Part shown: positions 5,231-53,259 of the stretch, piece by piece
How the letters are laid out: each line of letters begins with the position of its first letter
Numbering within the stretch: the stretch's first letter is position 1
Assembly: GCA_046335555.1 (NCBI GenBank)
Contig: JBKDHA010000169.1
Location: forward strand, 9,048-73,047
Reading direction: 5' to 3'
DNA length: 64,000 nt
Origin: Bacteroidota bacterium
GTDB taxonomy: Bacteria; Bacteroidota; Bacteroidia; Palsa-965
Made by a program: the position numbers and the translations under genes
The notes under the pieces: generated by a model
Databases searched by the model: none
The model's input: only the letters and a program-made list of their open reading frames with translations
Told to the model about the DNA's origin: nothing

Positions 5231-7099
5231 TTATACAAATGCCTGCATATCATAGAGCTTGCGGTAGGCTCCCTTTTTCTCTAATAAAGCCTGGTGACTT
5301 CCGCGTTCAATAATTTCGCCGTGTTGCATCACTACAATCTCATCGGCATGCTGAATTGTGCTCAAACGGTGAGCAATGATAAGGGATGTGCGGTTGCGCA
5401 TGAGGTTATTGAGGGCATCCTGCACCAACCGCTCCGAACTTGTGTCGAGTGCTGATGTGGCTTCGTCGAGAATGAGCAGCGGCGGGTTTTTGAGCACAGC
5501 TCTGGCAATGGCAATACGCTGCCGCTGGCCGCCCGACATCTTACCTCCGCGGTCGCCGATATTGGTTTGATAGCCGTCGGGCATGGCGGTGATAAAGTCG
5601 TGGGCATTGGCTACTCGGGCTGCTGCTTCAACTTCTTCCTGTGTTGCTCCGTCAACGCCGAAAGCAATGTTGTTGAACACAGTATCGTTGAACAAAATTG
5701 ATTCCTGCGATACAATGCCCATCTGCGCACGCAAATCGTGCAGGCGGAAATTTCGAATGTTTACACCGTCTATCAGTACTTCGCCTTCGGTTACATCGTA
5801 GAAACGCGGAAGTAAATCGGCCAGCGTAGTTTTGCCGGAGCCCGACTGTCCGACAAGCGCAATTGTTTTGCCTTTCTGCACTGTAAGATTAATATTGCGC
5901 AGGGCATAACCATCATCGCCGCGGGTGTATGCAAACGAAACATTTTTGTATTCAATGGCATTGCTGAAACTCGTTAGCGGCGCTGGTTGCGGTGCATCCG
6001 AAATTGTTTCTTCGGCATCAAGCACAGCATTAATGCGGTCGGCAGAAGCAAGACCTTTCTGCACATTGTTGTAAGCTTGTGAAAACTGACGAACAGGTGT
6101 AATGAGTTGCGAAAAAACAACCACGTAGCCAAAGAATTGTGCAGCAGGCAGTGTGCCATCGCCATACAACACCAGACGACCTCCGTAGTACATGATTACT
6201 GTCATTACAATCACAATCAGGAACTCGCTCATGGGAGAAGCCAGATCTACACGGCGGTAATTGCGCACCATAATGCGGGTATATTCTTCGTTTTCTTTCC
6301 GGAAGCGGTCGCTCACTTTTTTGCCGGCATTAAAGCCTTTGATGATGCGCAAACCGCCAAGCATTTCATCCATAAGCGAAAGCAGCAGTCCTAGTTTGGC
6401 TTTGGCTTTATGCGAAGTTTTGCGAAGACTTTTAGAAACTATAGCCAGTAAACCGCCAACCACAGGCGTTGCAGCAAGCACAAACAGTGTAAGTTCCGGA
6501 CTTGCCAAAATCAGATAAATCAGAAAGCCGAGAATGGTTACCGGTTCGCGAAAAATCATTTCAAGCGAACTCATGATACTCCATTCAATTTCCTGCACAT
6601 CGGCAGTCATACGGCTTATCAGATCGCCTTTGCGTTCGTTGCTGTAATAACTCAGCGGCAAACGCAGGGCTTTGTCGTACATTTTATTTCGCAGATCGCG
6701 CACAACACCGTTGCGAATTGTAGCCAGCGAATACATGGCCAAGTAACGAAATACGCTTTTGAAAAAGATGAAAATTACAGCCGCAATACATATAAAAATG
6801 AGTGCCTGCATTTTGGCTGCACTCATATCAGGGGCCGATGTAATGTAATCGGCAAGCTCATAGTTGATGCGGGCTACAAGGCTTTTAGGTGAGGTTACTT
6901 CTACAACTCCCGCTGCGGCAACTTCACGCAAACGCTCATCGCCACCCTGAAACAAAAGATCCAGCAGCGGCATTACTGTTAACAGCGAAAGCAGGTTGAA
7001 TATTACTGAAAGTATATTGAAGAAAATATTCATACCGGCATTGCGCCAGTAGCCATCAACATATTTCAGTACTCCGAAAAATTTTCTCATTGAGGGCAA
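5231..7099 (-). CDS. ABC transporter ATP-binding/permease fusion (MsbA-like exporter)
   Basis: Six predicted TM helices in the N-terminal half. Walker A (GQSGSGKTT), ABC signature (LSGGQRQRIAIARA), Walker B (LILDEATSALD). Confidence 0.9.
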   Translation of the reverse strand: MPSMRKFFGVLKYVDGYWRNAGMNIFFNILSVIFNLLSLLTVMPLLDLLFQGGDERLREVAAAGVVEVTSPKSLVARINYELADYITSAPDMSAAKMQALIFICIAAVIFIFFKSVFRYLAMYSLATIRNGVVRDLRNKMYDKALRLPLSYYSNERKGDLISRMTADVQEIEWSIMSSLEMIFREPVTILGFLIYLILASPELTLFVLAATPVVGGLLAIVSKSLRKTSHKAKAKLGLLLSLMDEMLGGLRIIKGFNAGKKVSDRFRKENEEYTRIMVRNYRRVDLASPMSEFLIVIVMTVIMYYGGRLVLYGDGTLPAAQFFGYVVVFSQLITPVRQFSQAYNNVQKGLASADRINAVLDAEETISDAPQPAPLTSFSNAIEYKNVSFAYTRGDDGYALRNINLTVQKGKTIALVGQSGSGKTTLADLLPRFYDVTEGEVLIDGVNIRNFRLHDLRAQMGIVSQESILFNDTVFNNIAFGVDGATQEEVEAAARVANAHDFITAMPDGYQTNIGDRGGKMSGGQRQRIAIARAVLKNPPLLILDEATSALDTSSERLVQDALNNLMRNRTSLIIAHRLSTIQHADEIVVMQHGEIIERGSHQALLEKKGAYRKLYDMQAFV

Positions 7100-7116
7100 A
7101 GATAATCGGAATGCAT

Positions 7117-7351
7117 GTGGCTTCGACAGGCTCAGCCACCTGCGAGATTTTTGTTTTTATCCACCTGCGAGATTTTTGTTTTTATCCACCTGCGAGATTT
7201 TTGTTTTTATCCACCTGCGAGATTTTTGTTTTTATCCACCCTGGAGATTTTAGTTTTTATTCACCCTGGAGATTTTTTTTATCCACCCTGGAGATGTTTA
7301 TTTATCTAGCTTCCAGAACGCATATCGGTGGCTGAGCCTGTCGAAGCCACC
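7117..7351. repeat. Inverted-repeat-bounded tandem array: 24-bp perfect TIRs (7117-7140 and 7327-7350) around about 7 copies of a 25-bp unit (ccacctgcgagatttttgtttttat; 4 perfect copies plus 3 degenerate, 7136-7305)
   Basis: Read directly from the sequence. The left TIR gtggcttcgacaggctcagccacc equals the reverse complement of 7327-7350. The periodic ORFs here (7090..7335 and 7115..7309) are repeat artefacts. Confidence 0.9.
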
Positions 7352-7541
7352 GATACGCACACAAAATCTACTTCTTCTGCTGATCAGATGCCGGCACTTG
7401 TTTTGTGTCAGTTTAAATAGAATTAGAATGAATCTTTTTAAGCCAGAAAGTGGCTGATCTGTTTATTTTATGTGTTGTTAGTCAGTGTTTTATTTGTTCT
7501 AAGTGGCGTTTTTTTAGTTTGTTGGGTATATTCGAAATAAA

Positions 7542-8642
7542 TTGAAAGAAATCAAAGTGATTTATATGAATAGGAAAATCTATAGAAGTATTATCTTTAG
7601 TAAATCACAACTCAAAACGCAATTAAAATTTGGTGATTATTTCCAGATTTATCCTTGTGATTTTAAAAAAGCTCCAGCTTCTCCATACTGTAGTGATTTT
7701 CCATTGGTGATTGAATATTATGTTGATGAAGTGCCTGAAGTGAAACTTCCTGATGAGTTACAAGAATTATCGACATGGGTTCATGAAAGTACTCAAAAAA
7801 TTAATCAGTTAAATCGACTATTGCGATTATTGTCGGTATTGACAAATCATAGATTTTTTATCATCGAAGAAAGTGGATATAAATGGGGTAAGGCTTTACC
7901 TGATCTTAAATTAAACGAAAATGAGAAAGAAGCCTTTAATAGTTCATCAAGTCAGACATTTTCACCTGGGTTTTACTATCCGAGTATTGCGGATGATTTA
8001 TGCATTACCGATTTTTCAGAGCAAAAATTTCCGGTTGCTGTGTTGATTGAGCATACTAAATATTATCGACGTGTTCCAAGTGATGATAGAGACATAGATA
8101 TAAATTTCCCGAACACAATTTATCAATCCGTTGACAAGTATTTTAGTTTAGATAATAATCGAAAAAAAGTTGCAAATTCTGTCAATCATCTTATTTGTAA
8201 TGGCATAGAAATTAAAGACAAGATGAAGAGTTTGTCGTTCCTATCCTTTGTTTCGGCTATTGAAACAATCGTGAATTATGAATTTAAAAAGAAAAATGAT
8301 GTAATAGAGTTTGAGTGTAATGACTGTCAAACAATAAAAACATCACAATTCACTTGTCCCAAATGTCAAAGACCAATTTGGGGAGTTAAAACGAAATTCA
8401 AAGAGTTTTTGAAAACTTACGTTTCAGGCACACCTAAATCAATAGAAAAGTATAATAAAATCTATAACCTTAGGTCAAAAATTGTTCATGCAGGTGTGTT
8501 GCTTTTAGGAGATGAGGAAATTGACTGGGGAGAATCATTAAATACGAATGAGCAATACACAACTTATTATGAGTCAATGCAACTTGCAAGGGAAAGTTTA
8601 TCTAATTGGTTACTTAAAGGAGCAAATAATATATCGGTTTGA
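7542..8642 (+). CDS. Hypothetical zinc-ribbon protein with C-terminal HEPN-like (Rx4H) motif; candidate abortive-infection/defence nuclease
   Basis: Very AT-rich ORF. C-x2-C-x9-C-x2-C zinc ribbon (CNDCQTIKTSQFTCPKC). Downstream helical segment LRSKIVHAG fits the HEPN Rx4-6H catalytic motif. The true start may be M10 (7569). Confidence 0.55.
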   Translation: MKEIKVIYMNRKIYRSIIFSKSQLKTQLKFGDYFQIYPCDFKKAPASPYCSDFPLVIEYYVDEVPEVKLPDELQELSTWVHESTQKINQLNRLLRLLSVLTNHRFFIIEESGYKWGKALPDLKLNENEKEAFNSSSSQTFSPGFYYPSIADDLCITDFSEQKFPVAVLIEHTKYYRRVPSDDRDIDINFPNTIYQSVDKYFSLDNNRKKVANSVNHLICNGIEIKDKMKSLSFLSFVSAIETIVNYEFKKKNDVIEFECNDCQTIKTSQFTCPKCQRPIWGVKTKFKEFLKTYVSGTPKSIEKYNKIYNLRSKIVHAGVLLLGDEEIDWGESLNTNEQYTTYYESMQLARESLSNWLLKGANNISV

Positions 8643-8711
8643 ACAGCTTTTGAGTTATATGACACCAAAGCTTTTCATTTACTGATAGAGTTTGACTTAA
8701 AAAGAAAAAGT

Positions 8712-9548
8712 ATGAATGCGATTAAATTATTTGAAAGCAAACAAATCAGAACAGTTTGGAACGAATCAGACCAGAAATGGTATTTCGTGGTTGCTGATGT
8801 TGTGAGTGTTCTAACCGATACACCTAATCCGGTGGATTACATTAAAAAAATGCGCAAAAGAGACGAGCAGCTTTCTCAAGGGTGGGGACAACTTGTCACC
8901 CCCCTTTCTGTAAGTACTGCCGGTGGTAAACAGAAACTGAATTGTGCTCATGCTCAAGGTCTTTTAAGAATCATTCAATCTATTCCGTCACCCAAAGCAG
9001 AGCCATTTAAACTTTGGCTGGCACAAGTTGGTGCTGACCGGTTAGATGAAATTGAGAACCCGGAACTGGCTACGCAACGAACCAGAGAATTATATAAACT
9101 TAAAGGCTATTCCGATGCCTGGATAGAAAAACGAATGCGGAGTATAGCCATTCGTGAAGAACTGACAGAAGAATGGAAAAACAGGGGAGTTAAAGAACAA
9201 ATAGAATATGCAATACTGACCGCTGAAATTTCGAAAGCAACATTTGGTTTGACTCCTTCTGAGTATAAGAAAGTAAAAGGATTGAAGGCTGAAAATCTCC
9301 GAGATCACATGAATGATCTTGAACTGATTTTTTCAATGTTGGGTGAAGCCTCTACAACCGCTATTGTTAAAACAAGAAATCCCAAAGGATTTACCGAAAA
9401 TCGAATAGCTGCCAAGCAAGGCGGATCGGTTGCCGGAAAAGCAAGGCGAGATCTTGAAATAAAAACTGGGCAAAAAGTGATAACCACCGAAAATTACCTG
9501 CCCGAACCAAAGCAGAAAAAAGCCATTAAAAAAGGCAAGAAGAAATAA
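8712..9548 (+). CDS. Bro-N (KilA-N) domain protein, DinD / phage-antirepressor-like
   Basis: N-terminus 'IKLFESKQIRTVWNESDQKWYFVVADVVSVL' fits the Bro-N consensus (F..IR......W..a.DV...L). Lysine-rich C-terminal tail. Confidence 0.7.
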   Translation: MNAIKLFESKQIRTVWNESDQKWYFVVADVVSVLTDTPNPVDYIKKMRKRDEQLSQGWGQLVTPLSVSTAGGKQKLNCAHAQGLLRIIQSIPSPKAEPFKLWLAQVGADRLDEIENPELATQRTRELYKLKGYSDAWIEKRMRSIAIREELTEEWKNRGVKEQIEYAILTAEISKATFGLTPSEYKKVKGLKAENLRDHMNDLELIFSMLGEASTTAIVKTRNPKGFTENRIAAKQGGSVAGKARRDLEIKTGQKVITTENYLPEPKQKKAIKKGKKK

Positions 9549-9585
9549 TCAGTTCAAAGTAAACTAGTGCAGGCAGCTCCCCAAC

Positions 9586-10107
9586 TCATTTCTTCTGCTG
9601 ATCGGATGCCGGAACTTGTTCCTGCTTCAGTTCAACCGGAATGGTTTTTCTCAGCCCCAGTGTTCCGGCCTTAATCCAGCCTTTCACTTCAACATTTGTC
9701 TGTTTCTGTGCTATAACCTTAATAAGCGCCGGAATGCCGCGAATGACATCAGCTAATTTGGCATTCACTTTTACGCGGTAAACATCTTCTGTTTTGCGTT
9801 TGATTTTTACTTTTTCGTTTACCGAAACTTTGCCCAGCGGAACTCCGCCAATTTTGATGTCGAGTTCTGAGCCGAATAGTGTAAACGCAATGCCGTTCGG
9901 ATTGTCGATTTTCATACCGAGGTCGAGCACTACAATGCCCTGAATCGGATCAAGCTTTAAAAACTTGATGTCTTCAATGCCTTTCGGAATAATTGGTTTC
10001 AAACCACATCCGCTGAGGATGAATACGAGCGGAAACGCAAGCAAAAGTGAAAACCGACGGAGGTTGTGCATGAGCTGAAGTTTATTAATGCGCATCTCTA
10101 AAAACAA
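9586..10107 (-). CDS. Hypothetical lipoprotein (LEA_2-like small beta protein); its 3' end is the right-hand att-like repeat
   Basis: Signal peptide plus lipobox (ILSGCG). 173 aa. The last 10 codons are duplicated at 7373-7403. Confidence 0.6.
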   Translation of the reverse strand: MFLEMRINKLQLMHNLRRFSLLLAFPLVFILSGCGLKPIIPKGIEDIKFLKLDPIQGIVVLDLGMKIDNPNGIAFTLFGSELDIKIGGVPLGKVSVNEKVKIKRKTEDVYRVKVNAKLADVIRGIPALIKVIAQKQTNVEVKGWIKAGTLGLRKTIPVELKQEQVPASDQQKK

Positions 10108-21594: not shown

Positions 21595-21619
21595 GGTGGT
21601 TTCGACAGGCTCAACCACC
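21595..21619. repeat. Hairpin repeat copy (ggtggtttcgacaggctcaaccacc) immediately after the SDR stop codon; left TIR of a 1.4-kb AT-rich block
   Basis: Same core (TTCGACAGGCTCA) as 7117-7140. 24 of 25 match to the reverse complement of 23036-23060. Confidence 0.85.
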
Positions 21620-21897
21620 ACAGCTTTTAGTCAAAAGCTCAACTGTCAACAGCTGTATTAATTGTTGTGGAAAGCATTTCTGGAAAATTTAGTTCAATTA
21701 AAATTTTTGATCGTCAAACTTTATATAGAATCTGATTTTACAACACCAAAAACGGCAACAGAATTTTTCACAACTTCTTTGACGATGCGTCCAAGAAGTA
21801 AATGTGGGAGATCGTCAAATCGAGATGATAAACTGTTTTGCCAATGCGAAGTATCGATTTTCCCTATCATAACTTATATTTATTGAGGTTAGTTGAA

Positions 21898-22233
21898 TTA
21901 TATCATAAATATGATTCGCAGGATAACAAACCAGTACACGAGTGCCATAGCTGCCAATACCCCCTGAACGGAGAGAATGATTTTATCCTTTGTGCTGAAT
22001 TTGATTTTATGGCGTTGATTCAACATGAGAAAAAATAGAATAATCGCCAGCGGGGAGGAAACGAACCGCATGAATGTAAGCCATTTCATTTCCCATAAAT
22101 AAATTAAGATAACGTTATCGACATAAAAAAAATAGTTTATTCCAGGAAGGAAATACAGAAAGAAATAGATTACAACTGGGGCAATAATGCCCCAAATACT
22201 TACTCGGAAGTAAACATCAATCTTTCGTTTCAT
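21898..22233 (-). CDS. Hypothetical small membrane protein
   Basis: 111 aa, three predicted TM helices, very AT-rich codon usage. Confidence 0.4.
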   Translation of the reverse strand: MKRKIDVYFRVSIWGIIAPVVIYFFLYFLPGINYFFYVDNVILIYLWEMKWLTFMRFVSSPLAIILFFLMLNQRHKIKFSTKDKIILSVQGVLAAMALVYWFVILRIIFMI

Positions 22234-22244
22234 TTCATCTATTA

Positions 22245-22847
22245 TTATTCATCGAAAAGCCCAAAGTATTCGTCATTTCTATTACCTATCGATGTGAATC
22301 TCATCCACTGATCAGAGATTCTTCTATATTGCTCAACGGGATAATACCTCGGAGACATCAAGCTATTGGCAAGTTCTATCATTTGTTGGTCGGTGTATTT
22401 TTGAGATGAAAAAATATATCCATCTGTTTGTTCCGCTCTACCATTTTTTTCATAAGGGAAAATAATCATGACTTTTTTATTTTCTGACAGCAGAATCAAT
22501 CTTGAATTTGTATAGTTGATGTATTTATTTAATCTAGTGTATGCTACATCTGATAGTATATCTTCCGTATTGTAATCCAAGCCATGGTCATATCCTAAGC
22601 CACTACACCATATTGTTTGGGTATCATTAAGAGAAGGGAATGACATATATGCAATCCCTCCCGGAACATCTTTCAATGAATCTAAAGGTGATGTATTAAT
22701 TACTTGCTCATTATCGTGAATACAAGAGGAAAAACAAAAAAGCAATAATACAGCAGTAAAAAAACTGTAATACAAGTTTATATATGGCTTAATTTTGAAA
22801 GCAAAAACTCGCATAAATATAATGTTTAATACTAAGGATAATCGCAT
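22245..22847 (-). CDS. Hypothetical lipoprotein
   Basis: Signal peptide/lipobox (LLLFCFSSC). 200 aa. AT-rich. Confidence 0.45.
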   Translation of the reverse strand: MRLSLVLNIIFMRVFAFKIKPYINLYYSFFTAVLLLFCFSSCIHDNEQVINTSPLDSLKDVPGGIAYMSFPSLNDTQTIWCSGLGYDHGLDYNTEDILSDVAYTRLNKYINYTNSRLILLSENKKVMIIFPYEKNGRAEQTDGYIFSSQKYTDQQMIELANSLMSPRYYPVEQYRRISDQWMRFTSIGNRNDEYFGLFDE

Positions 22848-23035
22848 TGAATAACTTTAGAATCCTACAAAAGAATGATTCAGTATTAGCACTGAACTAT
22901 TTTCGTTATAGGAAACGGCGTTATTCATATTTGCTAATATAGTGTACCGTAACTTTGAATTCAAGTTTCGTAACCAATTTTACATTATTTACAGTTAAAA
23001 GCTTATCGGTTTAGGTAATTGAGCTTGTCGATTTA

Positions 23036-23060
23036 GGTGGTTGAGCCTGTCGAAATCACC
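23036..23060. repeat. Hairpin repeat copy (ggtggttgagcctgtcgaaatcacc) inside an extended 9-bp stem (atttaggtg/cacctaaat) overlapping the GNAT stop; right TIR
   Basis: Read directly from the sequence. A partial tandem duplication (gagcttgtcgatttaggt) lies just upstream. Confidence 0.85.
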
Positions 23061-26829: not shown

Positions 26830-27549
26830 ATGAAAAATCAAGACAAATGGAAACCACGTCGTTTTCTGCGAGACAAGAAAGGGCGAATTATCGGAACCTA
26901 CAATCATAAAATTATCGGAAATGCGTATGAACCGGTAATCAGAAAGTATTCGAAAGGTAAGCTGGGCGATGTTGGGTGTGGTGATGTTCCATATTATCTC
27001 TTTTATAAAGATAGTGTTAGTGAAACCATTTGTATTGATTGGGGAAATAGCGGCCATAATATCTCTCATCTGGATTATGAAGCTGATTTGAATGAAGGCT
27101 TAGGTTTTATTGATACGAATACATTTGATACAGTGATTTGCTCGGATGTATTAGAACATATCCGAAAACCAGAATTTTTGTTTGCTGAGATGATCCGTGT
27201 ACTTAAACCGGGCGGACACCTGATTTTAACTGTTCCGTTTTTGTATTGGCTGCATGAGATTCCGCATGACCATCATCGCTACACTGAATTTAAATTGCGT
27301 GATTTTTGCTCGTCGAACAATGCGGAAGTAACCGAATTGTTTGCATACGGAGGATGGCCGGAAGTTGTTTTTGATATGATTTCAAAAGGTTACCGGTACA
27401 GTAACTTCCCGATGCAAAAAATGTTTTTCTTCTTCTGGAATGGCATGGGTAAATTTCTTTCACGCCGCAGCTTTGTTAAGCGTATTTCTGCCAATACCCG
27501 TAAAACATTTCCGCTGGGCTATGTTTTGGTTGCCCGAAAACTGAGTTAA
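26830..27549 (+). CDS. Class I SAM-dependent methyltransferase
   Basis: Motif I (VGCGDVPY) and motif post-I/II (VLKPGGHLILTVP). Confidence 0.75.
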   Translation: MKNQDKWKPRRFLRDKKGRIIGTYNHKIIGNAYEPVIRKYSKGKLGDVGCGDVPYYLFYKDSVSETICIDWGNSGHNISHLDYEADLNEGLGFIDTNTFDTVICSDVLEHIRKPEFLFAEMIRVLKPGGHLILTVPFLYWLHEIPHDHHRYTEFKLRDFCSSNNAEVTELFAYGGWPEVVFDMISKGYRYSNFPMQKMFFFFWNGMGKFLSRRSFVKRISANTRKTFPLGYVLVARKLS

Positions 27550-27659
27550 TTTTTATCGCGGGTAAAATAATCTATTAAAACACCGGAGAATTACAGCAGT
27601 AAATCATGATGATCGCCTGCAGTATATAAATGGACTGAAAATATCAGTTGAAGAAGCGA

Positions 27660-28721
27660 TTATTGTTTTGCGGTGTTTGCAACTGATAAAACAATAGCTC
27701 CAACAAGACAATAAATGGGTAGCAAGAGGCTGCGCATTGGTGCTAAATCGGAAAGTAAAAAGCAACTTACAAAAATATTGAGAGTGCCGATTGTAAGTAA
27801 GCTTACGATCAGCATTCGTTTTGCATTACCCTTCAGTACAATGCGATGATTTTTATTCATTCGGCCAATAGTGAAGATGACAGGCAGTAAAATAAGAACT
27901 TTAAAATGGGTTGCTTTCAGTAAATCCCAGTAGGTATGAATGGTGTTTTTTATGGCCTGAAGATATGTAAAATCAGGAAGTTGATTCAACCGTACTTTTA
28001 TTCCCGGCGATAAAACATTGATGAGAAGTGCTGTGCTTAAACCTAATAATGCCGCCGTAAGTATAAACGAGAAAGATTTTTCAATAAAGAATGAGCGCAA
28101 CCATATCACTGTAACAATTGCAAGCATTGTAATTAAGTTGGACTCCGAAAAACTTCCCGCAATCAGCAGAAGGAAGAAACCGAACAGACTATGCTTTAGT
28201 TGATGCGAGTACTGATGCTTCAACAACCAGGCTGCCGATAAAATCATCAGAATAAAAGAAAATGTATGCACGGATGTTCCTGCTGTCCAGTGCCACATAT
28301 CTGTGTTGACCGGCAGAATGCTTAAATAGCAGATGGCAATAAATAAAAATGAAAAAAGTAATTGTTCATGTTTCGCAAAACTCCTTTCTGCAATCCTTTG
28401 TGAAAGTGTGCGGAAGAAGAAGTTGAGCGAAAACAGCATGAAAAGTAAAAGGACGAATTGCCAGAGGATAAATATTCCTGACCATTTACTGCCAATGTAA
28501 AACAGCACACAACAGAGGATATGTGCACCCAGCCTGCCGTTTTGTTCGTTGTAGAAAAACTCGATTGCTCCTGATAAACCTTTGCTGATGGTTACTTCTG
28601 TGAAGAAAATATCATCGGCAGAAAAACGATAATGAATGGACTGTAAGGAGAACGCAATTAGAAAGAGAACAATGAATAATGCACTGAGCAGGTACGTCCA
28701 GCCATTGAAAATATTTTTCAC
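27660..28721 (-). CDS. Hypothetical polytopic membrane protein
   Basis: About 10 TM helices, no soluble domain. Confidence 0.5.
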   Translation of the reverse strand: MKNIFNGWTYLLSALFIVLFLIAFSLQSIHYRFSADDIFFTEVTISKGLSGAIEFFYNEQNGRLGAHILCCVLFYIGSKWSGIFILWQFVLLLFMLFSLNFFFRTLSQRIAERSFAKHEQLLFSFLFIAICYLSILPVNTDMWHWTAGTSVHTFSFILMILSAAWLLKHQYSHQLKHSLFGFFLLLIAGSFSESNLITMLAIVTVIWLRSFFIEKSFSFILTAALLGLSTALLINVLSPGIKVRLNQLPDFTYLQAIKNTIHTYWDLLKATHFKVLILLPVIFTIGRMNKNHRIVLKGNAKRMLIVSLLTIGTLNIFVSCFLLSDLAPMRSLLLPIYCLVGAIVLSVANTAKQ

Positions 28722-49567: not shown

Positions 49568-50020
49568 CTATTCTTTATTTTGTGAATCAATTACAATTGT
49601 TACTGGCCCATCGTTGAGTAATTCAACTTTCATGTCAGCTCCGAAAACGCCTGCCGCAACCGGTTTTCCTAATTCAACCGACATTTTATCCAGAAAGCTT
49701 TCGTAGAGCGGAATTGCAACCGGAGGTTTTGCAGCGCGGATATACGAAGGCCGGTTTCCTTTTTTGGTTGAGGCATGCAATGTGAACTGACTGACCACCA
49801 AAATTTCGCCACCGATGTCTCTGACTGAAAGATTCATCAGTCCGGCATCATCACCAAAAATGCGGAGAGCCGCAATTTTCTGACTCATCCAATTAATGTC
49901 TTCTGATGTGTCGGCATCTTCAAAGCCGGCCAGTACCAGCAAGCCATTGTTAATTTGGCTGTGCAGATTGCCGTCAATTGAAACGGAGGCTCGGGTAACA
50001 CGTTGTATAACGCAGCGCAT
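49568..50020 (-). CDS. dtd: D-aminoacyl-tRNA deacylase
   Basis: MRCVIQRV...SQFTL...NDGPVT motifs. Start moved to MRCV (about 150 aa). Confidence 0.9.
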   Translation of the reverse strand: MRCVIQRVTRASVSIDGNLHSQINNGLLVLAGFEDADTSEDINWMSQKIAALRIFGDDAGLMNLSVRDIGGEILVVSQFTLHASTKKGNRPSYIRAAKPPVAIPLYESFLDKMSVELGKPVAAGVFGADMKVELLNDGPVTIVIDSQNKE

Positions 50021-50417
50021 AGTTCTGCGAATGTACGAATACATGGTCGTTGCGGATGTTTGTTGCAACGAGTTATTTTGATCTCCAGAAATGAAATGAA
50101 AAGTAAACTGAGCCCTTAAAATTATTTGATTGATAATCAGCATAAAAAAAATAATGCAATGTTTTAATGTACCTAAGTATGTGACATTAGATTTTTAGTT
50201 TCGTTATTGGTGTTTAAATAGATGATTCTTGTTTTTCCGAATATTTACCCATCAAATCTAATGTCTGAATTAACATAATTTAAAAACACCATTTTCGTTA
50301 ATACACGTCTAACCCATAGAAGAGTTAACCCCACGGCTTTCTATCTCAACTTTTATCCGCTTACATTTTATTAAAAAAGCATCTCCGAATCCATATTATC
50401 AATCAAATTACAGGCAA

Positions 50418-51173
50418 ATGACAAAACGCATTAATGCAGTGCTGGTAGATGATGAGCCGTTTCTGATAAATGTACTTACTAATTTACTGGAACGACATTG
50501 CCCGCATATACATATAATCGCCACATTTAATTCGCCTGAAGAGGCGATAGAGGCAATTCCAGATTTATATTTTGAGTTGCTTTTTTTAGATGTTGAAATG
50601 TCGGTAATGACAGGTTTTGAAATGCTTGAAAGACTTGGTGTTCATTCGTTTCGTGTAATTTTTGTAACGGCCCATGATACCTACGCAATAAAAGCATTTC
50701 GTAATAATGCACTCGATTATTTACTGAAGCCGGTAGATGCTGATGAATTAAAAGCGGTAGTAAAAAAATTCGGAAAAGAAGTATTAAGTGAGGCTTTGGA
50801 GTCGGCAGAGAGTAAACAGTTGATGCCCCCGTATGAAAACGAGCAGATGCAGCGGTTGCCGATAGCTTCGTCTGATGGAATACATATAGTTGATGTCGAA
50901 AATATTATTTATATGGAAGCATCATCAAATTATACAACATTTTATTTCCGGCAGGGTAAATCAATTACAGCATCACGCAATCTTGCTTTTTTTGAAGACC
51001 AGCTTCCCAAGTCCAAATTTTTCAGAGCGCATAATAGTTTTCTGATACAGTTGCGTTACATCACTCGTTACATCCGCGGAGAAGGCGGATTTGTGGAGAT
51101 GGTGGATGGCCGTCAATTAGAAGTTTCAAGAAGACGCAAGGCTGATTTGTTGCGCACATTGAATATTAGTTGA
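50418..51173 (+). CDS. LytTR family two-component response regulator (no cognate kinase adjacent)
   Basis: Receiver domain (VLVDDEP...FLDVEM) and C-terminal LytTR DNA-binding domain. Confidence 0.9.
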   Translation: MTKRINAVLVDDEPFLINVLTNLLERHCPHIHIIATFNSPEEAIEAIPDLYFELLFLDVEMSVMTGFEMLERLGVHSFRVIFVTAHDTYAIKAFRNNALDYLLKPVDADELKAVVKKFGKEVLSEALESAESKQLMPPYENEQMQRLPIASSDGIHIVDVENIIYMEASSNYTTFYFRQGKSITASRNLAFFEDQLPKSKFFRAHNSFLIQLRYITRYIRGEGGFVEMVDGRQLEVSRRRKADLLRTLNIS

Positions 51174-51237: not shown

Positions 51238-53259
51238 CTATCGGTTAATGATAAGACGATCCTGTTTTACCACTTTGTTATTTACAGTAAGCTGATAGAT
51301 ATAGATTCCATCTGCAAGCTCATCAAATGTAAGTTGTTGCCCCGAAGTTGTAAGACTACGCGAAGCTACACTGCGTCCGCTCATATCTAGAATCTGCACC
51401 TGTACGGCATCAGTTTCTTCGGCTTGGTAGTTGAATGTGAATGTTCCGTTGCCCGGATTCGGGAATACACTGGCTTGCTGTTGGCTCACACTGTTATCAG
51501 CAGTTCCAGCTTTGCGGCATCCGAATGGTGTAAAGAACAATACATCCGTAGTTGTTTCTCCACAACGATTAGTCATTGTAAGTGTAACTGTGTAAGTTAC
51601 AAATCCGCTTCCGCCTGTTGTGAATGGCTGTGCTACAGTTGTACTGCTCAGTGTGAGTCCGGCCGGAGATGAAGTCCATACATATGTAGCGCCAGCAATA
51701 GCAGGAGTTCCTATCGGATCGCCAATACAACCACCGTCGGGACCTGCATTTGCCACTTCATTTACGCAGGGAGCTTCAAAACAGTTGATTTGTGATTTGG
51801 GAAAAGGAAACGATTCTATTTCTAATATAGCAGGAACTGTAAGTGTTCCGTTTGCAACTGTGGCTGCTGTTTGCGTTGTAATGTTATTCGACTCAAGTGT
51901 AAGCAATACATCCAGATAACTGCATGGAGGTTCTTCGGACGAACCCGAGCTTCTGATCAGTTCAAGACGTATATCTGAATTATACTCTCTGCGATAACCG
52001 AAATAATAATTTTCACTATTGCGGCGAGAAATCAACATTTCAGGTGTAAAAATATCAGGCATACTGGTTGAATTTCCTAATGTCATAAACGGTGTGCCAA
52101 AGCCATTTAAGCCTCCACACGGAATTTCGTTATAGCGGTCAAAATTTACTGCACCATTGGTAAGATTCAAATCGGCAATAAACGGAACTTTACTTAAAAC
52201 CGTATTCCCAAGAGCATCAGTAACATTTACTCCAGCCTTCATTCCGGCAACTGTCAGTACGTTTATATTTGAATTGTCTATTTTAATAGAATAACCATAA
52301 GCATCAATAGCTGAAGGATCAATATACCCATATCTGCGATTTGTAGCAGGGGTGGACACTGTGGTACTGGTAAGAGTAAACTCTGTAACTACAAAACCAC
52401 GTGAACTTGAGTTGTTGGAAAGTACGAATAGTTTATTGGCTATTGCATCATAAGCAGCCGAAGCCCCTACTTCATTTGCAGTCGATGTTGAGGTTTTATA
52501 TGATCTGTTGAAGGAAATTGCTCCTGTTGTTTTATTTAACCAGATTGCTAAAACTGATTTTACACCCCCGGTAGAATTACTTTGATTACGTGTACCTGTA
52601 ATAAAATATCCCAATGAGGTTTCAATCCCGAAATCACACATATCCCAATCGTTTGAAGCTGTTGATGTGGTGTTGATAAACTTCCGCCAAACAACATTCA
52701 GGCTTTGATTTATTTTTATAGCAATGCCTTGTTTGGAGCTGCTGTTCAGTGTTCCGGCATAATAAAAACCAGTTACAAAGAAATTTCCATCCTGTGTTTG
52801 AAATGCGTGTAAAGCATTGCCTGCAAGTGTTCCGCTGGTATAATATCTGTGATTCAGTAAATTGCCGAATCTGTCAATGATCCAAACGTGCGGACGAAGA
52901 ATGCCTCCTTCTACCGATGCACCGGAGATAATATAACCGTTGTTTGCTCCTCCGAAATTGTAGCTATTTACATTATAACAATATTCGTTAGTCCCACCGT
53001 TTATTCTTACCGACCAACCTACTTTTCCAAAACGATCGTATTCCAATACTTCAATGTCTGCAGTATCTGAAGGTGAATTTGTACTTGTAACTAATGTGCC
53101 TGCGGCAACAACTCCAAACGGATCAATAGGATTGCCGACCATTGAATAGCCGAGCATTTTTTTTCCTGTAGTATAAGTAGAAGTTTGACTGTCTGCGCTG
53201 GCGTATGTGGCTACACACATTAGCGCAGAAGTGATTAAAGTTTTCATAATTGTTTTCAT
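51238..53259 (-). CDS. Large secreted protein with T9SS C-terminal sorting domain
   Basis: Signal peptide. C-terminus VFPNPGNGTFTF...DMSGRSV...DGIYIYQL...LIINR matches the T9SS CTD. Confidence 0.75.
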   Translation of the reverse strand: MKTIMKTLITSALMCVATYASADSQTSTYTTGKKMLGYSMVGNPIDPFGVVAAGTLVTSTNSPSDTADIEVLEYDRFGKVGWSVRINGGTNEYCYNVNSYNFGGANNGYIISGASVEGGILRPHVWIIDRFGNLLNHRYYTSGTLAGNALHAFQTQDGNFFVTGFYYAGTLNSSSKQGIAIKINQSLNVVWRKFINTTSTASNDWDMCDFGIETSLGYFITGTRNQSNSTGGVKSVLAIWLNKTTGAISFNRSYKTSTSTANEVGASAAYDAIANKLFVLSNNSSSRGFVVTEFTLTSTTVSTPATNRRYGYIDPSAIDAYGYSIKIDNSNINVLTVAGMKAGVNVTDALGNTVLSKVPFIADLNLTNGAVNFDRYNEIPCGGLNGFGTPFMTLGNSTSMPDIFTPEMLISRRNSENYYFGYRREYNSDIRLELIRSSGSSEEPPCSYLDVLLTLESNNITTQTAATVANGTLTVPAILEIESFPFPKSQINCFEAPCVNEVANAGPDGGCIGDPIGTPAIAGATYVWTSSPAGLTLSSTTVAQPFTTGGSGFVTYTVTLTMTNRCGETTTDVLFFTPFGCRKAGTADNSVSQQQASVFPNPGNGTFTFNYQAEETDAVQVQILDMSGRSVASRSLTTSGQQLTFDELADGIYIYQLTVNNKVVKQDRLIINR

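Follow-up and report, generated by a model that had tools for sequence, protein, structure and literature searches.

What is encoded by the AT-rich gene at positions 7542-8642 of this stretch of Bacteroidota DNA (contig JBKDHA010000169.1, positions 9,048 to 73,047, forward strand; all 64,000 nucleotides are called the window hereafter), and is it a defence gene? An initial annotation, made from the letters of the sequence, regarded the product as a zinc-ribbon protein with a HEPN-like motif and as a candidate defence RNase. According to our analysis the gene probably encodes a stand-alone two-domain HEPN ribonuclease, a member of a large, unannotated and mainly Bacteroidota family, which would act as a single-protein abortive defence against phages.

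The open reading frame (ORF) of 366 amino acids recognised in the initial annotation, 7542-8642 (+), exists and begins with TTG; the same form is annotated at NCBI as "hypothetical protein" from a Bacteroidota metagenome-assembled genome (MFN8713974.1). All homologues begin at the equivalent of the ATG at 7566, including P0001 with 358 amino acids and 100% identity, so that the coding sequence is likely to be 7566-8642 (+), i.e. 358 amino acids plus stop, on the basis of the ORF list and the homologue starts. Residues are counted from this ATG throughout. The AT-richness noticed earlier is borne out: the gene has a GC fraction of 0.317, and of 0.251 at third codon positions (GC3), versus 0.44-0.50 and 0.43-0.51 in the flanking genes. 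A housekeeping signature is likewise lacking, as had been stated, since the protein yields no significant match in Pfam, NCBIfam, PADLOC or PHROGs; only sub-threshold zinc-ribbon matches are found and no family.

HEPN domains are defined as four-helix up-down bundles of two alpha-hairpins, frequently with insertions separating helix 2 from helix 3; an Rx4-6H motif ends helix 3 and enters the loop between helices 3 and 4, helix 2 bears a conserved acid, often as Ex3[K/R], and the arginine is followed by a polar residue, mostly N, D or H (PMC3710099). The AlphaFold2 monomer of our protein, modelled with the family alignment, is confident (pLDDT 90.7, pTM 0.89) and its topology maps exactly onto this definition. 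In the model the C-terminal half contains helices 197-215, 221-239, 274-285, 290-309 and 325-351 and beta-hairpins in 248-259. The HEPN domain comprises residues 196-351 (8151-8618, +), a four-helix up-down bundle of two alpha-hairpins with helix 1 at 197-215, helix 2 at 221-239, an insert at 243-285, helix 3 at 290-309 and helix 4 at 325-351. The only Rx4-6H of the protein lies in LRSKIVHAG, the block pointed out in the initial annotation: R303-S-K-I-V-H308 (8472-8489, +), with R303 at 8472-8474 and H308 at 8487-8489, closes helix 3 at its C-terminal end and is followed by the loop 310-324 of the model. The acid is E233 (8262-8264, +), located in the SAIE block within helix 2.

Rx4H arises in 15% of shuffles of the protein, and the motif by itself carries no meaning; its significance is due to its conservation together with the fold context. 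Among all fetched members R303 is conserved in 231 of 231, H308 in 230 of 231 and E233 in 236 of 237; Y300, just upstream of R303, is found in 230 of 231, C264 in 226 of 227 and C267 in 226 of 226. These same six columns (E233, C264, C267, Y300, R303, H308) are invariant among members that share 21-42% identity with the query, and R303, H308, E233 and Y300 stay near-invariant while the mean column identity elsewhere is 22%. The initial annotation held its HEPN reading to be refutable by a C-terminal region without a predicted HEPN fold, or by homologues that do not conserve R and H. A four-helix HEPN fold is predicted C-terminally, with Rx4H ending helix 3, and about 230 homologues, some with as little as 21% identity, keep R and H essentially invariant; the HEPN reading is therefore sustained.

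The C4 zinc ribbon, C251-x2-C254-x9-C264-x2-C267 (8316-8366, +), is placed between HEPN helices 2 and 3 by the sequence, the model hairpins 248-259 and the weak zinc-ribbon matches in Pfam. It reads CNDC-x9-CPKC (residues 251-267), a pattern that occurs in 0.06% of shuffles. Its presence had been described correctly in the initial annotation. The ribbon is not a separate domain ahead of HEPN but part of the insert within it. The catalytic motif follows the ribbon as claimed, though R303 stands 35 residues after the last cysteine and not about 40. In the model the insert, residues 243-285, is made up of the zinc knuckle hairpins and a short helix. Of 229 members covering the insert, in a sample skewed to close relatives of the query, 124 possess two CxxC knuckles, 93 only the second (CxxCGQPxY) and 12 none; insert length and knuckle number thus differ across the family, and the first knuckle is missing in many members. 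The zinc element is thus an accessory decoration of the insert, and E...R...H the constant core.

A search of the HEPN clan, Apea and Abi_2 profiles had been proposed earlier; by profile search, the protein is not a member of Apea, Abi_2 or any other named HEPN family. Profiles of the full length and of the HEPN domain only, compared with solved chains, retrieve no HEPN chain, just ribosomal and polymerase proteins with zinc ribbons, at E > 0.1; the HEPN-domain-only profile, run against 5.8 billion proteins, finds solely family members without Pfam labels. In a Pfam scan of 63 divergent members, sub-threshold matches to HEPN_Apea occur in two (E 0.036) and to HEPN_Cthe2314 in one (E 0.034). 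Because a sequence link to a named HEPN family is missing, the HEPN assignment is built on predicted structure and motif. The protein represents a distinct family in the HEPN fold class, outside every named family tested.

A word-indexed search finds 99 homologues, every one of which is labelled "hypothetical" and lacks Pfam domains, and a hidden Markov model search of 1.84 billion representatives finds at least 1,128 cluster representatives (50% identity) at E <= 1e-3, with 669 at <= 1e-10. Nearly all of the 24 reference-genome loci belong to Bacteroidota (Chitinophagales, Cytophagales, Flavobacteriales and Bacteroidales including Prevotella), and one to Rhodanobacter. The distribution is patchy, i.e. 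the gene is present or absent among close relatives. No paper naming this HEPN protein family was found in a literature search. Two homologues are split into two overlapping ORFs, L027:9998-11055 (94 and 258 amino acids) and L032:1581-2584 (208 and 129 amino acids); frameshifted pseudogenes or errors of assembly may account for this, which would hint at occasional inactivation of the gene.

The first 195 residues (7566-8150, +) form an alpha+beta domain with strands in 3-54 (a beta-sheet), a long helix 63-92 and a mixed region. It makes up about half of the protein and was not mentioned in the initial annotation. No recognisable fold relative was found in a structural comparison of residues 1-195, and we propose this half as a sensor or regulatory domain.

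The gene resides in a low-GC insert of 2.19 kb (7403-9589; GC about 0.34, range 0.32-0.40, versus about 0.46), which carries only the HEPN gene and a Bro-N gene and is absent from close relatives. Its borders are marked by a 31-nt direct repeat: the left copy (7372-7402) duplicates part of the LEA_2 3' end, and the right copy (9590-9620) belongs to the intact LEA_2 gene (9586-10107, minus), within whose 3' end it is found. Both copies are 94% identical and 2218 nt apart (repeat search, family D2). Empty sites are found in L034, L035 and L036, where LEA_2 directly adjoins the ABC transporter, and a single repeat copy is present at the empty sites L034:6380-6760 and L036:6380-6800; LEA_2 is 89% and 82% identical in the empty-site relatives. 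At the syntenic locus L001 the left copy is already degenerate, so that the insertion predates the species split. The co-inserted Bro-N gene (8712-9548, +; 278 amino acids; GC 0.405, GC3 0.326) matches Pfam Bro-N (2.3e-13), phrog_15286 and, over nearly its full length, the single-gene candidate PDC-S13 of PADLOC (2.7e-118); one source names it DNA-damage-inducible protein D. PDC models are untested "phage defence candidates", proposed from guilt-by-embedding in BREX, DISARM and type I restriction-modification loci (bioRxiv 10.1101/2024.01.29.577857). The name "PDC-S13" was not found in the literature. A scan for sigma-70 promoters and terminators returned counts at or below shuffle expectation, with a consensus that does not suit Bacteroidota, and Rfam detects no RNA within 7000-9700.

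The two inserted genes evolve at different rates. Between the window and L001 the HEPN gene has 66% amino-acid identity, 0.221 nonsynonymous substitutions per nonsynonymous site (dN) and 1.02 synonymous substitutions per synonymous site (dS). The respective values are 91%, 0.061 and 1.25 for Bro-N, 91%, 0.065 and 1.27 for the ABC gene, 93.5%, 0.044 and 0.93 for M20 and 84%, 0.093 and 2.04 for LEA_2, and YkuD is 82% identical. The dN of the HEPN gene is therefore 2.4-5 times that of Bro-N and the flanking genes, and its dN/dS ratio (omega) about 0.22 versus about 0.05; these NG86 estimates are crude, with dS of 0.93-2.04 near saturation, and the rates are indicative only. Bro-N, with an omega of about 0.05, evolves at the housekeeping rate. 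Divergence of the HEPN protein from its L001 counterpart is greatest in the N-terminal domain, most strongly in residues 91-210. As all five genes have dS values of similar magnitude, the 66% identity probably reflects an elevated amino-acid substitution rate of the HEPN gene, and allele replacement is unlikely.

The neighbourhoods were scanned with 130 ORFs, three per side at 24 loci, by Pfam, PADLOC and all-vs-all BLAST. Neighbour families recur in at most four of the 24 loci by Pfam or PADLOC and in at most three by all-vs-all BLAST. PADLOC matches, each in at most two ORFs, comprise PDC-M01A, type IIG and type II restriction-modification, mad2/mad3, DUF1848 (a DRT-associated PADLOC model), PtuA, AriA, HEC-04 and NsnB. 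The Pfam matches include integrase (4), AAA_15 (4), AAA_21 (3), Eco57I, N6_Mtase and Mrr_cat (2 each), SLFN_AlbA_2 (2) and RhuM (1). In L003 an RHS toxin locus lies upstream of the homologue, which has AbiJ_NTD3/AAA_21 and AAA_15 genes next to it; the homologue in L004 follows an MksE/DUF3584 set and AAA_15/AAA_21 genes, and the one in L008 is located beside SLFN_AlbA_2 and near Fic. The gene is accordingly a stand-alone module, often but not always amid defence or mobile-element genes, and a role in defence or abortive infection is suggested by this context, to which the accessory locus adds the insert with its empty sites and the co-insertion with the PDC-S13 candidate.

L003:1-9599 is a dense conflict-system island. 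There, the homologue lies directly downstream of an RHS-repeat/DUF6443/Tox-MPTase2 locus with small unannotated ORFs, and upstream of both the AbiJ_NTD3-AAA_21 gene and another ATPase, which is AAA_15/SMC-like.

The initial annotation had found no MNT-type partner and left open whether the protein acts alone or together with Bro-N. An MNT gene is indeed missing in the window, and at the 24 other loci none turns up among the recurrent families or in the top-25 listings for the 130 neighbour ORFs. Acting alone is the part of that alternative which our data support, whereas Bro-N is not a conserved partner: it adjoins a family member only in the syntenic L001 and L002 and at no more than one of the 24 other loci. 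Bro-N was hence rejected as an obligate partner, being present only in the syntenic relative. An unannotated small antitoxin was rejected too, as all-vs-all clustering reveals no recurrent family among the 130 neighbour ORFs.

HEPN enzymes are metal-independent RNases, whose composite active site is formed by dimerisation (PMC3710099). In the mechanism that we propose, the C-terminal HEPN domain would be the effector, with H308, R303 and E233 forming a metal-independent RNase site that, by analogy with other HEPN enzymes, would be completed across a homodimer. The zinc knuckle or ribbon in the loop between helices 2 and 3 may brace this loop or mediate contacts with RNA or protein. The N-terminal domain of about 195 amino acids would silence the nuclease until an infection cue is sensed, whereupon cleavage of cellular RNA (tRNA, rRNA or mRNA) would halt translation and abort phage replication. 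A more specific version is put forward tentatively, and we regard it as rather doubtful: the N-terminal domain might be a previously undescribed pattern-recognition module whose direct binding of a phage protein frees or assembles the HEPN nuclease. The zinc knuckle is variable and, in one-knuckle forms, could be paired between subunits; it might mediate an activation-dependent oligomerisation loosely resembling that of RAZR.

Several observations weigh against a HEPN defence RNase. At the level of the protein, no named HEPN family or solved HEPN chain is linked to it by sequence in the Pfam, NCBIfam, PADLOC and profile searches. Of 231 members, 195 have S and 34 have C after R303, residues that are small and polar but look atypical beside the N, D or H mostly found there; the acid of helix 2 stands in an apparently atypical E-x3-N context instead of Ex3[K/R]. 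Moreover, we infer the spatial proximity of R303, H308 and E233, and their equivalence to known HEPN sites, from the topology of the model. At the level of the genome, the evidence of the neighbourhoods for defence is qualitative, without a background control, and the homologue in L006 has purely housekeeping neighbours. Mobility is visible only as an insertion that is present or absent, since the 2.19-kb insert encodes no integrase, transposase or other recombinase, and neither tblastn against phages and plasmids nor an IMG/VR viral scan found a homologue. The rates, besides being approximate, point the same way, as an omega of 0.22 still indicates purifying selection.

Four other explanations can be set against these data, and all of them are less likely than a HEPN defence RNase. 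An accessory RNase for RNA processing or stress response, e.g. in tRNA or rRNA turnover, non-immune and situated in variable regions by chance, would agree with the purely housekeeping neighbours in L006 and with the purifying selection of omega 0.22, and HEPN RNases do process RNA elsewhere, as in Las1, Ire1 and the RNase L-type KEN domains (PMC3710099). The patchy presence and absence, the atypical GC, a dN 2.4-5 times that of the neighbours, the recurrence of defence and mobile-element neighbours and the co-inserted PDC-S13 gene do not fit such a role, and we consider it unlikely. Co-insertion also underlies the idea of a two-gene toxin-antitoxin or addiction module, in which the HEPN protein would be the toxin and Bro-N the antitoxin or regulator, and which would stabilise the cassette without any phage defence. 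Both genes are on the same strand, 69 bp apart with no terminator-like site between them, the pair is retained in a second species, and HEPN toxins are classic toxins of toxin-antitoxin systems (PMC3710099; structural matches). Yet Bro-N accompanies the family only at the syntenic locus and at no more than one of the 24 other loci, no other neighbour is conserved and an MNT gene is lacking, and Bro-N alone matches a single-gene defence candidate and evolves, unlike the HEPN gene, at the housekeeping rate; such a module is distinctly unlikely.

Another alternative is a catalytically inactive HEPN that would serve as a nucleic-acid- or nucleotide-binding module, comparable to the C-terminal domains of kanamycin nucleotidyltransferase or to sacsin, with the zinc ribbon making it a DNA- or RNA-binding regulator. 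Several structural matches of the model are indeed non-nuclease HEPN domains (sacsin, GlnE- and DrrA-type), and the S or C after R is atypical. Families that lose activity typically lose Rx4-6H (PMC3710099), however, while in this protein no residues are better conserved than R, H and the acid, and the zinc element cannot supply the core function, as some members of the family do without it; we judge an inactive protein to be very improbable. Least credible is a toxin or immunity protein of a polymorphic toxin system, involved in interbacterial conflict and without an anti-phage role, to which we give hardly any weight. The homologue just downstream of the RHS/DUF6443/Tox-MPTase2 locus of L003, among small unannotated ORFs, speaks for it, but this context occurs in one locus only and the others hold intracellular defence or mobile-element genes; the alignment displays no N-terminal trafficking domain, and no signal-peptide or RHS-fusion prediction was run.

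Between the ABC-transporter gene and the cassette, in the divergent intergenic region (7111-7350), a 25-bp unit, CCACCTGCGAGATTTTTGTTTTTAT, is repeated in tandem about 6-7 times, the copies decaying rightward. A perfect 24-nt inverted repeat (7117-7140 / 7327-7350) encloses this array, and the arms of the inverted repeat are themselves hairpin-forming elements resembling repetitive extragenic palindromes (REP-like), GTGGCTTCGACAGGCTCAGCCAC. The equivalent regions of L001, L034 and L036 possess arrays of the REP-like hairpin element in both orientations instead. The 23-nt REP-like hairpin element occurs again as an inverted pair, 21596-21618 (+) and 23037-23059 (-), on either side of a low-GC patch of 1.4 kb (GC 0.32 at 22-23 kb). 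The patch holds two small ORFs on the minus strand, one hydrophobic with 111 amino acids and several predicted membrane-spanning stretches, the other with 200 amino acids and a hydrophobic N-terminus. The region 21596-23059 may represent another small cassette, or the hairpin element may mark a hotspot of insertion. Further low-GC patches are located at 27001-28000 (0.38), 50001-51000 (0.35) and 52001-53000 (0.39), with a window mean of 0.448, and these may be other inserted cassettes.

If active, the HEPN protein would add a sizeable, wholly unannotated family to the catalogue of prokaryotic defences, from a phylum whose immune systems are under-sampled by E. coli-centred screens. A compact single-gene system is mutationally tractable, with E233, R303, H308 and C264/C267 as candidate substitutions, and the natural series of two, one or no zinc knuckles suits a dissection of the role of the insert. 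With its mapped insertion junctions and empty sites, the locus is moreover a clean case of a two-gene cassette, in which one gene evolves several times faster than all of its surroundings. Should the N-terminal domain be a pattern-recognition module, the family, with at least 1,100 sequence clusters and largely confined to Bacteroidota, would constitute a new group of immune sensors that consist of a single protein. A further HEPN defence candidate is little surprise to specialists; its value lies in the size of the family, the focus on Bacteroidota, the unrecognised N-terminal fold, the knuckle series and the insertion with its rate asymmetry.

Among known systems, RAZR/PD-T7-4, HEC-08 and ApeA are the closest functional analogues, and the protein falls into none of the three. 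RAZR/PD-T7-4 is a single-protein defence of HEPN plus zinc finger that loses function on mutation of R or H, and RAZR is activated by assembly around phage ring proteins (portal, Gp77) (PMC13017515). It has a separate N-terminal ribbon followed by DUF4145 with R-x7-H in about 230 amino acids, whereas our protein has the ribbon within HEPN, R-x4-H and an additional domain of 195 amino acids, and it matches neither DUF4145 nor any PADLOC model, PD-T7-4 included. HEC-08, an active single-gene defence with HEPN and zinc-finger-like domains, is abolished by mutation of the Rx4-6H histidine (bioRxiv 10.1101/2024.01.29.577857); its N-terminal DUF3644 HEPN precedes C-terminal zinc fingers that are not intradomain, the order here is the opposite, and no PADLOC or Pfam match exists. 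ApeA shares the stand-alone status, a family-specific N-terminal domain rich in conserved aromatics, a C-terminal HEPN with intact Rx4-6H and defence contexts (PMC3710099), but ApeA-NTD1 has about 300 amino acids and is mostly beta, compared with about 195 amino acids of alpha+beta here, and HEPN_Apea (PF18739) and PADLOC give no match.

More distant are HepT (PDB 8xdj, 7ae2, 5yep), a single domain of about 130 amino acids that is always MNT-paired and regulated by AMPylation, while our gene has no MNT neighbour, an extra N-terminal domain, a zinc insert and no sequence similarity, and Csm6/Csx1, which are CRISPR-linked and bind cyclic oligoadenylate with a CARF sensor; the N-terminal domain here gives no CARF-like structural match and no CRISPR occurs at the loci examined. 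HEPN domains of the CXorf38 type, from the Abi2/Swt1 assemblage, belong to an animal family fused to other domains and have no sequence relationship to our protein, which matches neither the Abi_2 nor the Swt1 HEPN models of Pfam, but they possess a "Zn ribbon inserted into HEPN" (PMC3710099) and so provide a precedent for the intradomain ribbon.

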